Source of the DNA: Trichormus sp. ATA11-4-KO1
GTDB taxonomy: Bacteria; Cyanobacteriota; Cyanobacteriia; Cyanobacteriales; Nostocaceae
Length of the DNA: 64,000 nt
Direction of reading: 5' to 3'
Assembly (NCBI GenBank): GCA_019358915.1
Contig: JAHHIM010000022.1
Span: forward strand, 12,783-76,782
Positions 20,428-22,625 of this stretch are shown piece by piece. Position numbers and translations under genes: made by a program. Numbering within the stretch: the first letter of the stretch is position 1; every line of letters starts with the position of its first letter. Under the pieces are notes generated by a model, which was given only the letters and a program-made list of their open reading frames with translations, did no database searches and had not been told where the DNA came from.

Positions 20428-20724
20428 TTAAGCTAATTCTACTTCTTCAAAGTGTTCAACAGTGGGAAATGGCTCATAGAAATGATGCAGCAATTTTTTC
20501 CACTCTTGATACTCAGCAGAGCCTCTAAATCCCACAGTATGAGCTTCTAAACTCTCCCATTTGACAAGTAACAAATATTTACTTTGAGCTTCTATGCATC
20601 GATGAAGTTCATGTGATATATATCCGTTAGTTCTTGAGATAATACTAGAAGCTTTTTTAAAAGCAGATTCAAAATCATCTTCCAGTCCAGGTTTGATATT
20701 CAGCATCACTGCCTCTAAAATCAT
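20428..20724 (-). CDS. Antibiotic biosynthesis monooxygenase (ABM) family protein
   Basis: 98 aa; YLLLVKWESLEAH...FRGS pattern. Confidence 0.9.
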   Translation of the reverse strand: MILEAVMLNIKPGLEDDFESAFKKASSIISRTNGYISHELHRCIEAQSKYLLLVKWESLEAHTVGFRGSAEYQEWKKLLHHFYEPFPTVEHFEEVELA

Positions 20725-20859
20725 AAACTTTTTCTTGAGTCCAGTTGATGTGATTTACTATAATGCGATCGCTGCTCTCTTAACTCAACTAAAAATAATT
20801 CTTGAGTAAATAGATAATTACAGTACAAAATGGCGCAGTTCTGGATGAATACATCTGCT

Positions 20860-20890
20860 TTGACAAATTCTGAAGCAGGGGTTTTATAAT
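20860..20890 (+). promoter_or_regulatory. Consensus -35/-10 promoter with 19-bp spacer, upstream of the mini-array
   Basis: TTGACA at 20860-20865 and TATAAT at 20885-20890; CTGCTT-N12-AAGCAG dyad at 20855-20878. Confidence 0.7.
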
Positions 20891-20894
20891 GAAG

Positions 20895-21007
20895 ATTGTC
20901 AAGATATAATCCCTATTAGGGATTGAAACTCCTAAAATTTGTAGAACGACTAACCAATTTCCACTAGGAAATTAACAAATTCAAAAATCCCCACAAGGGA
21001 TTGAAAC
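20895..21007 (+). CRISPR. Orphan CRISPR mini-array: 2 degenerate type I-D-like repeats and one 41-nt spacer
   Basis: R1 20895-20929 ATTGTCAAGATATAATCCCTATTAGGGATTGAAAC; spacer 20930-20970; R2 20971-21007 ATTAACAAATTCAAAAATCCCCACAAGGGATTGAAAC. Both keep the AATCCC/GGGATT stem and the ATTGAAAC end. Confidence 0.85.
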
Positions 21008-21008
21008 T

Positions 21009-21317
21009 ATGCTAAGTGTCACAAAACCAAACTTTGGATTACGGATAAGGAACAGCATCGCCCCCAAAGAAAACGAGCAAATGAGGGCGATCGTTTATAG
21101 TATGGACTTGCTAATCCCTGGTTTATATGTGTGGCTCCCAGGATTTAATATTCGGATTGGCGGAAGTATTCCTGATGATTTACCTTACAAGTATCCTGGT
21201 AAAATTCACAGCCCGGCTGGCATTGCTTTAGTATTACCTGGATACAAGATATTGACTACGTATCAGGGAACCTATGACCCTAGAGAAGCACCAAATACAA
21301 GGAATACCTCAATTTAA
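21009..21317 (+). CDS. Hypothetical protein immediately after the CRISPR repeat (start could be 21009, 21081 or 21102)
   Basis: 102-aa ORF with an internal LPG(F/Y)xI duplication; no family recognised. Confidence 0.6.
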   Translation: MLSVTKPNFGLRIRNSIAPKENEQMRAIVYSMDLLIPGLYVWLPGFNIRIGGSIPDDLPYKYPGKIHSPAGIALVLPGYKILTTYQGTYDPREAPNTRNTSI

Positions 21318-21501
21318 ATGTAAGGTCATAGACTCCAGTCAATTTGAAGAAATGATGCAAAAAGCTGGTTACTTCATAGCGGGAAGTGCTTCAGCACAAG
21401 GTAACAGGATTAAAGTTTGGTGGATGCATCTTGAATATCAAAGAGTTGAATCAATATACAGTCAAGACAAAACAAAAGTTATAACGGCGTATCACGTTTA
21501 G
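21274..21501 (+). CDS. Hypothetical small protein, possible RNase-type toxin
   Basis: 75 aa; helix (SQFEEMMQKAGY) then beta strands, ending VITAYHV; overlaps the upstream ORF by 44 nt. Confidence 0.6.
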   Translation: MTLEKHQIQGIPQFKCKVIDSSQFEEMMQKAGYFIAGSASAQGNRIKVWWMHLEYQRVESIYSQDKTKVITAYHV

Positions 21502-21537
21502 TACTGCTTCAATCTTTTATTTGAATGCAATGTATTT

Positions 21538-21558
21538 GGTGGGCAAATGCCCACCCTA
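21538..21558. repeat. REP-like palindrome GGTGGGCA-AA-TGCCCACC
   Basis: Same family as the 10391 copy; lies between convergent genes. Confidence 0.7.
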
Positions 21559-21571
21559 GTTTTAACTAAAC

Positions 21572-22486
21572 TTAAACAGACTGAAACTTAATTACGCCTT
21601 TGTCGAAAATCTTTTTATCAGTGCCCATTGTGCTGACTTCAATTCTATCGGGATATACTTCATAAGCAGCAAAAGCCAACCTTTCAGCAGCATGTTCTGT
21701 CCACTCAGAACGCCCCACAGGACGAACACCTGCACCACTACCAGTTGTTAAATAAGTTGTGCCTTCAATAGCACGAGTACGCTCATAATTATGGTCATGG
21801 CCATTGATATAAAGTTGCACATTGTACTTTTTAAATAAAGGTACAAAGCGTTTAATTAATGCTTGGCTAACTCCATAGTGTCCCGATGAATAAAACGGGT
21901 CATGTCCAAATACTACTTTCCACGGTGCATCACTGCGGCTTAATTCTTGGTCTAACCAAACTGCTTGTTTCTCCCAATCAGCATTACGGTTAGTATCTAA
22001 AGCAAAAAATTGTACTGCGTCACGGCGAAATGTGTAATAACGTCCCTTCATGTTAAAGCCGGGATATTTGACTTGTGGGTCACCATTCTCAGTGCGAATG
22101 TCATGATTTCCTAAACAAGCGTGAAATTTGACATTCTGAGACAGTAAATTTTCATAGGGACGCTCAAAAACGGCACCTATTTTTTCAATTTCGCCATCGT
22201 TGTAAATATTATCTCCAGCTAAAACTACTAAATCATAGGGATTTCGCTGGTGATGAAAATTCATCGCCTCAGCCACAGCATATTGTCCTTTAGCACCAGT
22301 TCCTGTATCTGCAACAGAAACAAAACGCAATAGCAAGTCATTTTTGGCTGGGGTGGCGGCTATAACTGCTGAATCAGCAACATTAGCAATTTGGCCATTT
22401 TGTCGAGTTAGTGTCCAACCGAGAAGTCCTGTACCAAGAGTACCAAGACTACCTAAAAATAGAAATTGACGGCGTTTCAGGTTCAT
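21572..22486 (-). CDS. Tat-exported calcineurin-like metallophosphoesterase
   Basis: KRRQFL twin-Arg signal; ADTG, GDNIY, GNHD and GHDH motifs. Confidence 0.93.
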   Translation of the reverse strand: MNLKRRQFLFLGSLGTLGTGLLGWTLTRQNGQIANVADSAVIAATPAKNDLLLRFVSVADTGTGAKGQYAVAEAMNFHHQRNPYDLVVLAGDNIYNDGEIEKIGAVFERPYENLLSQNVKFHACLGNHDIRTENGDPQVKYPGFNMKGRYYTFRRDAVQFFALDTNRNADWEKQAVWLDQELSRSDAPWKVVFGHDPFYSSGHYGVSQALIKRFVPLFKKYNVQLYINGHDHNYERTRAIEGTTYLTTGSGAGVRPVGRSEWTEHAAERLAFAAYEVYPDRIEVSTMGTDKKIFDKGVIKFQSV

Positions 22487-22625
22487 AAACTCACCAAAAC
22501 TCAATAACTAGTCAGTTTAGCCGAAGAAGCAATGAGCATTGAAATGATACATTAGGGCAAAAGAGGCAGCAGCAGCAAAAATGCTAGTTATTTGTCTTTG
22601 ATTCGCTGCTTTTGGTGAAAGTTCC

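Follow-up and report, generated by a model that had tools for sequence, protein, structure and literature searches.

CRISPR half-repeats abutting the start codon of a conserved two-gene cassette in Nostocaceae: a possible Cas6-processed mRNA leader

Sequences resembling the repeats found in clustered regularly interspaced short palindromic repeat (CRISPR) arrays are known as parts of small regulatory elements. CreA of the CreTA system (Cheng et al., PMC8501985, PMC9458426) and CreR (10.1101/2023.03.10.532045) are repeat-like regulatory mini-arrays, and type I-D mini-arrays controlling toxin-antitoxin cargo were reported by Shmakov et al. in 2023 (PMC10120712). As set out in the accessible parts of these reports, such mini-arrays lie inside cas loci and act in trans, with a spacer that pairs with a promoter adjacent to a protospacer-adjacent motif (PAM) and a Cascade complex that blocks transcription. 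Here, we describe a locus in which CRISPR half-repeats stand directly in front of a pair of small protein-coding genes. It is located in a 64,000-nt stretch of the genome of Trichormus sp. ATA11-4-KO1 (order Cyanobacteriales, family Nostocaceae; GenBank assembly GCA_019358915.1, contig JAHHIM010000022.1, positions 12,783 to 76,782 of the forward strand), which as a whole is referred to as the window. The element in question is a cassette of three half-repeat units followed by two overlapping open reading frames (ORFs), ORF1 and ORF2. This layout had been proposed in an initial annotation as two repeat ends, a single T, an ATG, and overlapping ORFs of 102 and 75 amino acids (aa), and its coordinates were confirmed on the sequence. 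The main features are as follows.

20824..21530, + strand: whole inserted cassette; the edges are approximate and were placed by eye against a syntenic relative without it (genome G397, locus L205)
20908..20929, + strand: unit 1, CRISPR half-repeat AATCCCTATTAGGGATTGAAAC, with a predicted hairpin AATCCC/GGGATT and the 8-nt handle ATTGAAAC
20956..20977, + strand: unit 2, degenerate half-repeat AATTTCCACTAGGAAATTAACA, with a 7-bp hairpin AATTTCC/GGAAATT in the centroid fold and a decayed handle
20986..21007, + strand: unit 3, half-repeat AATCCCCACAAGGGATTGAAAC, with a predicted hairpin and its 3' end 1 nt before the ORF1 start codon
21009..21317, + strand: ORF1, 102 aa, conserved and of no family, recognized as an ORF and by its homologues
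21274..21501, + strand: ORF2, 75 aa, the conserved partner of ORF1, recognized in the same way

Units 1 and 3 each comprise 22 nt, a 6-bp hairpin followed by the handle ATTGAAAC, and with the stem and 8-nt handle of the host repeats they carry the features of a Cas6 substrate. A single T separates unit 3 from the ATG of ORF1 at position 21009. Exact copies of GGGATTGAAAC were found at only two places in the window, both of them within units 1 and 3. When one mismatch was allowed, three matches were obtained versus 1.04 expected, a number that was reached by 9 of 100 shuffles. At the level of the whole genome, the 21-nt core of the unit was present in 60 copies, compared to none for a reversed control, and true arrays located on five other contigs account for nearly all of these copies. 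The 3'-terminal 22 nt of three host repeat types, represented by arrays on contigs C11, C73, and C18, have the same sequence as unit 1. Judged by these counts, the likeness between the units and the host repeats is not a matter of chance.

The initial annotation had assigned the units to the 3' half of Nostocales type I-D-type repeats cut by Cas6, which agrees with these matches and with the presence of a type I-D Cas6 in the genome. It had further drawn two repeats, beginning at positions 20895 and 20971, on either side of a 41-nt spacer, and had termed the whole an orphan mini-array. Only the 3' 22 nt of the approximately 37-nt host repeat are common to both; the 5' halves are unrelated to each other and to the host repeats. 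The 41-nt stretch recurs with few changes in four relatives whose ORF1 proteins share 76 to 94% identity with that of the window (L098, L099, L102, and L103). It contains the degenerate hairpin of unit 2, the stem of which is retained with a variable loop in L098, L099, and L102. Being conserved and enclosing a decayed third hairpin, it was ruled out as an acquired spacer. A bona fide CRISPR array was rejected as well, as the leader contains neither full-length, near-identical repeats nor a unique acquired spacer of about 35 nt. The structure is better called a tandem of half-repeats without a real spacer. Its centroid fold consists of three hairpins, with a z score of -2.3 relative to shuffled sequences.

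Several Cas proteins are encoded elsewhere in the genome. A type I-D locus on another contig comprises cas3', cas10d, csc2, csc1, cas6, and a 4-repeat array. The gene for Cmr2/Cas10 at C10:25392-27188 shows that a type III system is present, and cas1 is split over two contig ends (C52:124-828 and C68:125-292), with one piece in a 511-aa frame that may represent a fusion. In addition, an orphan Cas6 of 378 aa with Cas6_N and Cas6 domains is encoded between cofG and trmFO at C34:30453-31589 (L209:10454-11587). Its C terminus gave a sub-threshold match to a sigma-70 region-4-like helix-turn-helix (HTH), and neither an array nor cas genes were found near its locus. In most of the family's genomes, the highest-scoring Cas6 frames were about 380 aa long. 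The orphan Cas6-HTH protein is a candidate processor of solitary repeat units. With the type I-D Cas6 and the orphan Cas6, enzymes that recognize this hairpin are present in the host.

We propose, with a probability of roughly 0.45, that the leader is a cis-acting substrate of host Cas6 that sets the 5' end and the translation of the mRNA. The cassette would then consist of its own promoter, a leader of two to three CRISPR half-repeats, and a translationally coupled operon for two proteins that act together. Either the type I-D Cas6 or the conserved orphan Cas6-HTH protein would bind the last hairpin and cut at its base, at about position 21000. Such a cut would fix the mRNA 5' end and leave a 9-nt leader, ATTGAAAC-T-AUG. 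It would also strip the sole Shine-Dalgarno-like sequence, AAGGGA, which is located in the 3' arm of the hairpin, and translation of ORF1 and ORF2 would then depend on Cas6 activity. The effect in the version found in the window would most likely be repression.

The association of the units with the gene pair was assessed across loci that carry ORF1 homologues. At least one unit was present in sense orientation within 300 nt upstream of ORF1 in 49 of 78 distinct loci, compared to none in antisense orientation and 5 of 78 in a downstream control window. The last unit ended no more than 10 nt from the start codon in 33 of the 78. With a stricter unit detector applied to 69 named loci of up to 16 kb each, sense units were detected in 35; all of them preceded ORF1, ending 2 to 418 nt before its approximate start, and none occurred elsewhere, with four distant matches in antisense orientation. 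The arrangement in most Nostoc loci is a promoter, one full repeat, a conserved stretch of 15 nt, a half-repeat, 7 nt, and the ATG. Several loci carry two to six further repeats with 35-nt spacers, the gene pair forming the 3' tail of a short true array. Units are also found in tandem without spacers, four in L033 and three in L102, and in some relatives, L033 among them, the gaps between units are only 7 to 20 nt. Gaps of this length indicate a tandem of half-repeats rather than a mini-array that yields guides. An idea that the gene pair might itself form a giant spacer was dropped, as no repeats in the same orientation were seen downstream of ORF2.

Outside Nostocaceae, homologues from Scytonema, Tolypothrix, Calothrix, Chamaesiphon, and other genera had no units and were preceded by other leaders or by an N-terminal extension of ORF1. 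The extension in a longer ORF1 of Tolypothrix (139 aa) gave only a sub-threshold match to DUF6290. Unit-less homologues from other families of the order (L042 to L052 and L081) share a different conserved leader, agaccgcttttgcaccgtaacgcacaggaatcagtgcc followed by an ATG, within the 45 nt that precede ORF1. This leader may form a GCAC/GTGC hairpin around AGGAA. It might regulate the same two genes as a second type of leader with no relation to the CRISPR units. In a metagenome-assembled genome (MAG) of Scytonema hyalinum, a CRISPR array with a related repeat lies directly 3' of ORF2 in convergent orientation (L180:8430-8700), a case of array linkage outside Nostocaceae.

The pattern of change within the units contains signs that they are maintained by selection. 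Among close relatives, the stem and handle of the terminal unit are unchanged while the loop varies (CACAA, CGAAA, or CTTAC), and 93.4% of cells in the terminal hairpin are paired. In the Anabaena/Dolichospermum clade, a CG pair of the stem has changed to UA on both sides, and the covariation score was reached by 2 of 500 shuffles. This variant occurs once per genome, at the cassette only, and differs from the repeat of the host arrays. The 5' repeat halves and the spacers have been lost with the hairpin and handle retained, and the distance from the last unit to the start codon is steady at 1 to 7 nt over a range of 65 to 99% protein identity. The coding sequence that follows is consistent with this boundary. 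When the first 21 codons of ORF1 were compared by eye with those of L098, four of the six differences were synonymous, which supports a start codon that abuts unit 3.

Comparison with relatives also showed the cassette to be a separate piece of DNA. Genome G397 (L205) has the same gene order, with a 277-aa gene, a metallophosphoesterase gene, an ABM-domain gene, and a helicase gene, without ORF1 and ORF2. The interval between its metallophosphoesterase and ABM genes measures about 108 bp versus about 850 bp in the window and represents a syntenic empty site. Nucleotide homology to cassettes at other sites covers positions 20877-21501 (L127, 93%) and 20903-21501 (L128); it begins at the -10 box or at unit 1 and ends at the stop codon of ORF2. 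The flanks of the window are common only to a genome of the same genus. From these alignments, the cassette of about 0.65 kb is a discrete insertion into the core chromosome, found in varied genomic contexts, and the units travel with the genes. Only 4 nt common to the two cassette ends were noticed when terminal inverted repeats were looked for by eye. The surroundings of the insertion are the following.

20428..20724, - strand: ABM-domain gene, flank, from family search
~20766: flank site GCGATCGC, read from the sequence
21538..21555, + strand: GC-rich palindrome GGTGGGCAAATGCCCACC followed by a T-rich tail, terminator-like, just outside the cassette, from a sequence scan
21572..22504, - strand: metallophosphoesterase gene, flank, from family search

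All four had been listed in the initial annotation, the site at about 20766 as a HIP1 site. Its statement that the 64 kb contain no cas genes also held, with no match to cas families among the 57 window ORFs of at least 120 aa. The remainder of the window is core chromosome, including pcrA, ribosomal protein operons, secY, rpoA, prfA, and chlL/N. Palindromes nearly identical to GGTGGGCAAATGCCCACC occur downstream of the cassette in L102 and L103. The one in the window may terminate transcription, may belong to a dispersed repeat, or may do both.

Two promoter-like sequences precede or overlap the first unit.

20883..20910, + strand: promoter-like TTTATA-16-TATAAT, from a consensus scan (10/12 positions), with a -10 box that extends into the 5' arm of unit 1
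20860..20890, + strand: alternative promoter-like TTGACA-19-TATAAT, read by eye from the sequence

The promoter named in the initial annotation corresponds to no more than a consensus match, and promoter-like sites in this region were no more numerous than in shuffled sequences. Information on transcription came from assembled contigs of a relative's cassette, which is about 94% alike, in metatranscriptomes from four runs of three studies. The whole stretch was present only in the DNA run that is its probable source; the RNA runs hold the relative's copy as contigs. These contigs span unit 3 and both ORFs unbroken and continue past ORF2. In three runs their upstream ends lie about 1 to 3 nt past unit 1, and those of the remaining run reach about 20917 (overall, about 20917-20933). 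The start predicted from the TATAAT at 20905-20910 is likewise about 20917 and coincides with one of the contig ends. The contigs hint weakly at a common transcript for the last units and the ORFs, and no more strongly at a partial role of unit 1 as promoter DNA. For the segment that begins right behind unit 1 and includes unit 3 and the ORFs, this hint agrees with the earlier claim that the repeats belong to the same transcript as the ORFs.

A number of observations weigh against the proposal of a Cas6-processed leader. Cas6 cutting and its effect on expression are predictions from sequence. The RNA contigs come from a relative, DNA carry-over into the libraries is possible, and true RNA ends cannot be read from contigs. 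With a transcription start at about 20917, unit 1 would act as promoter DNA and not as an RNA hairpin. Units are absent from 29 of the 78 loci, including most homologues outside the family, so the proteins work without them; the initial annotation had asked whether homologues keep upstream repeats, and this was so for the other 49. Moreover, related genomes are not independent samples, and the locus counts therefore overstate the number of independent events. Some terminal units have decayed: L100 has no 5' arm, and stem mismatches were found in L112, L121, L144, L148, and L153. Co-occurrence with Cas6 says little because 357 of the 389 genomes of the family have a match to the Cas6 family TIGR01877. 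Of the 32 genomes without a match, at least 8 and at most 20 are among the 160 that carry the cassette, which bears on the question, raised in the initial annotation, of whether homologues occur only in hosts with I-D/Cas6. Two such carriers, G244 and G182, are 99% complete; their ORF1 and ORF2 are intact and accompanied by a degenerate unit, and the two genomes gave no Cas6 match and 0 to 3 canonical units.

Part of the same evidence would fit the alternative that survives best, a decaying relic, which we consider possible though on the unlikely side. In such a case, the pair would have come to lie downstream of an ancestral array, or have been recombined into one, and the half-repeats would supply no more than a promoter and untranslated sequence. 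The many Nostoc loci in which a true short array runs into the pair are what would be expected of this history, as are the mismatches and partial deletions of several terminal units, the unit-less homologues outside the family, and the persistence of cassettes in genomes without a Cas6 match. The accessible text of Reimann et al. (bioRxiv 10.1101/2020.04.14.041012) describes array fragmentation as common in filamentous cyanobacteria. However, under neutral decay the hairpin and handle should vanish no more slowly than the 5' halves and spacers. What is observed is that stems and handles persist with changing loops, that units have multiplied without spacers, and that the short distance to the start codon stays constant. 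The movement of the units with the genes to new sites also argues against a mere relic.

Of the 301 genomes that sampled the order, 59 contained ORF1 homologues; for the family, the number was 160 of 389. Those of ORF2 were found in 48 of the 301 order genomes and nearly always adjoin ORF1. The two ORFs overlap by 44 nt in different frames, the ATG of ORF2 lying inside the codons for a conserved YDP of ORF1. The invariant residues of ORF2 are R, K, H, E, and Y. Exceptions to the common layout were observed in three Nostoc MAGs (L116, L150, and L164), where the ORF2 homology is broken by inserts of about 0.1 to 0.9 kb, and in the Anabaena/Dolichospermum group (L033, L038, and L169 to L172), where ORF1 and ORF2 do not overlap and lie 45 to 290 nt apart.

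No family was found for either protein in Pfam, NCBIfam, PADLOC, or PHROGs. When 74 ORF2 homologues were searched against Pfam, only scattered matches were returned, all with E values of 0.028 or higher. Profile searches against PDB sequences gave a best E value of 0.4 for ORF2 and, for ORF1, a match to an antifreeze protein with an E value of 0.015; both were judged to be noise. A protein atlas offered no lead for ORF1. Its lead for ORF2, DUF4258 (PF14076; 0.84), was rejected, given that none of the 74 homologues matched this family at E values up to 10 and that hhalign against 12 DUF4258 proteins yielded a probability of 4.1% with 13 C-terminal columns aligned. PF14076 had no match in the genome itself. 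At E values of 0.001 or lower, only 71 cluster representatives among 1.84 billion matched ORF2, which makes for a small family. One representative, the 148-aa protein P0166, combines an ORF1-like N-terminal half with an ORF2-like C-terminal half and is either a natural fusion or a frameshifted gene call.

Structure prediction gave a similar picture. The ORF1 model had a predicted local distance difference test score (pLDDT) of 68.5 and a best VIA Z score of 2.7. The ORF2 model, with a pLDDT of 93.8, shows one helix and a four-strand meander; its best VIA Z score was 5.6, to generic four-strand meanders, and its best Foldseek E value was 0.38. Foldseek returned no match with an E value of 0.001 or lower for either model. 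A complex of ORF1 and ORF2 was predicted with a score of 0.39 versus 0.00 for the best control, a result that counts as weak support on the scale of the tool; runs agreed in at least 13% of contacts, and the partner pLDDT was at least 66. Both ORFs are genuine genes that are conserved together, and neither could be placed in a known family or fold. The absence of a match to a toxin or antitoxin family does not exclude a new family of that kind.

The initial annotation had proposed that ORF1 and ORF2 form a toxin or toxin-antitoxin module whose mRNA is cut or occupied by Cas6 or Cascade and which is released upon loss or inhibition of Cas, as an anti-anti-CRISPR guard or addiction switch. It would resemble a type V toxin-antitoxin system in which host Cas6 takes the part of the antitoxin. 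The small size of the two genes, their overlap, and their patchy spread in order and family would suit such a module. Some genomes hold two to four copies of the cassette, contexts vary, some loci lie near other toxin-antitoxin genes, and two plasmid records carry ORF1. A Cas6 cut would strip AAGGGA from the mRNA in the window's version, ORF2 has the invariant residues R, K, H, E, and Y, and toxin-antitoxin cargo of type I-D loci under CRISPR-like control is known from the accessible portion of Shmakov et al. (PMC10120712). Against this stand the lack of similarity to any toxin or antitoxin family or fold, the failure of the DUF4258 lead, and a natural ORF1-ORF2 fusion, which would be unusual for a toxin-antitoxin pair. 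Unit-less homologues are common. Above all, intact cassettes persist in the two 99%-complete genomes without a Cas6 match and with almost no repeats, which argues against an obligate or simple lethal-toxin switch. For the same reason, the addiction switch is rated as unlikely.

A related and equally doubtful reading is that the cassette acts as a cis-acting sensor of CRISPR health. Cas6 would keep an effector untranslated, and loss, titration, or phage inhibition of Cas6 would lead to its translation and to growth arrest or defense. The mRNA would be born as the tail of a pre-CRISPR RNA, with possible loading of Cas5 and Cas7 on the 8-nt handle and the first codons. As a spacer-free guard module, it would function in trans together with any Cas6 whose repeat class matches.

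It was also considered whether the locus is directed against CRISPR, with units that soak up Cas6 or Cas7 in the manner of the Racr RNA anti-CRISPRs and small proteins that are anti-CRISPRs or regulators, carried on a small mobile cassette. Units directly 3' of a consensus-match promoter, away from cas genes and beside small genes in one operon, would fit Racr candidates as presented in the accessible part of Camara-Wilpert et al. (PMC10651486), and the cassette is an insertion in variable contexts. ORF2 even aligned with AcrID1 (6exp), with a VIA Z score of 4.5, a root mean square deviation of 2.7 over 59 residues, and a Foldseek TMq of 0.53 at an E value of 1.0, all of which is within noise. 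However, ORF1 and ORF2 occurred in none of 50,697 phage records, and ORF1 occurred in only 2 of 72,556 plasmid records, the copy on a plasmid of Nostoc sp. HK-01 having a decayed hairpin 9 nt before the ATG. The neighbors in the window are housekeeping genes, and in Nostoc the downstream flank is common to many species, which suggests vertical inheritance. The cassette furthermore coexists with large arrays of the same repeat type, and many copies carry real spacers. An anti-CRISPR locus is accordingly regarded as very unlikely.

A mini-array of the CreTA/CreR type, in which the sequence between units guides Cascade to a partly complementary promoter, is the least likely of all readings and highly improbable: two degenerate repeats around approximately 41 nt would resemble one, and the host uses the mechanism elsewhere, but the supposed spacer is conserved and is itself a decayed unit, the 7- to 20-nt gaps of relatives are too short to guide, and the cassette lies outside the cas locus, which is on another contig. 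For the three candidate spacers, no seed of at least 11 nt with a GTN PAM was found in the whole genome; matches of 9 to 10 nt were scattered over other contigs, as by chance. The same test applied as a positive control to a mini-array in the host cas locus did find an 11-nt seed with a GTT PAM. The initial annotation had likewise set its model apart from CreTA-style repression, and this distinction held.

The control element is located on the minus strand at C1:127862-128100 (L210) and consists of two half-repeat units, with cas3' on one side and a small ORF plus mntA/hepT and cas10d on the other. The 27-nt spacer between the units matches a site 108 bp away at 18 of 27 positions, including the seed. 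It resembles the type I-D regulatory mini-arrays with toxin-antitoxin cargo in the accessible text of Shmakov et al. (PMC10120712). Two further observations were made on the host systems. A gene for a 203-aa 2OG-Fe(II) oxygenase-like protein is inserted in the type I-D operon between csc1 and cas6 (C1:134719-135330; L091:14720-15328), and a lone full-length CRISPR repeat lies on the minus strand at C14:28341-28377, between a gene for a 1705-aa caspase/WD40-like protein and a porin gene.

Known uses of CRISPR repeats outside defense are guide based, in that a spacer pairs with DNA or RNA. In the cassette described here, the repeat half recognized by Cas6 is found in the leader of a protein-coding mRNA, at a short and fixed distance from the start codon, an arrangement conserved across a large cyanobacterial family. 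Should Cas6 act on this leader, an operon of the cell would in nature be controlled in cis by an enzyme of CRISPR processing, which would also suggest a possible function for the "orphan" mini-arrays of Nostocales and for the conserved orphan Cas6-HTH gene. In either case, two uncharacterized small-protein families tied to CRISPR arrays have been defined. Among the titles and abstracts consulted, none described CRISPR repeats fused to a start codon or such a gene pair.

With CreTA, CreR, and the type I-D mini-arrays, as far as their accessible descriptions go, the cassette shares degenerate host-type repeats outside arrays, small cargo genes, a link to type I-D hosts, and a presumed dependence on Cas6. 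Unlike in those systems, its units are in cis in the mRNA leader and abut the start codon, have no guide target, and are far from cas genes. Racrs, according to the accessible part of Camara-Wilpert et al. 2023 (PMC10651486), are repeat mimics that directly follow a promoter, are not linked to cas genes, and are sometimes accompanied by small protein genes in an operon, features found here as well. They are borne by phages and plasmids and inhibit the host system, whereas the chromosomal cassette occurs widely within a single bacterial family, had no match in the phage collection searched, and often adjoins real spacers. The orphan arrays of Reimann et al. 2020 (bioRxiv 10.1101/2020.04.14.041012) belong, in the accessible text, to the same repeat family, with a hairpin and a handle ending in GGGATTGAAAC, and they too have no adjacent cas genes and a remote Cas6 that acts on arrays of this kind. 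They yield CRISPR RNAs, and a protein-coding operon fused to the last repeat was not met in that portion of the report. If the reading as a sensor of CRISPR health is true, type V toxin-antitoxin systems offer a further parallel, since the endoribonuclease GhoS cuts ghoT mRNA and so likewise controls the message of a small protein (PMC12737573, accessible part). GhoS, however, is a dedicated RNase encoded beside its target, and the predicted counterpart for the cassette would be the CRISPR Cas6 of the cell. As read from these genomes, the element is a CRISPR repeat-like RNA element outside arrays that is distinguished by its action in cis, should it act, by the lack of a guide, and by its distance from cas genes.

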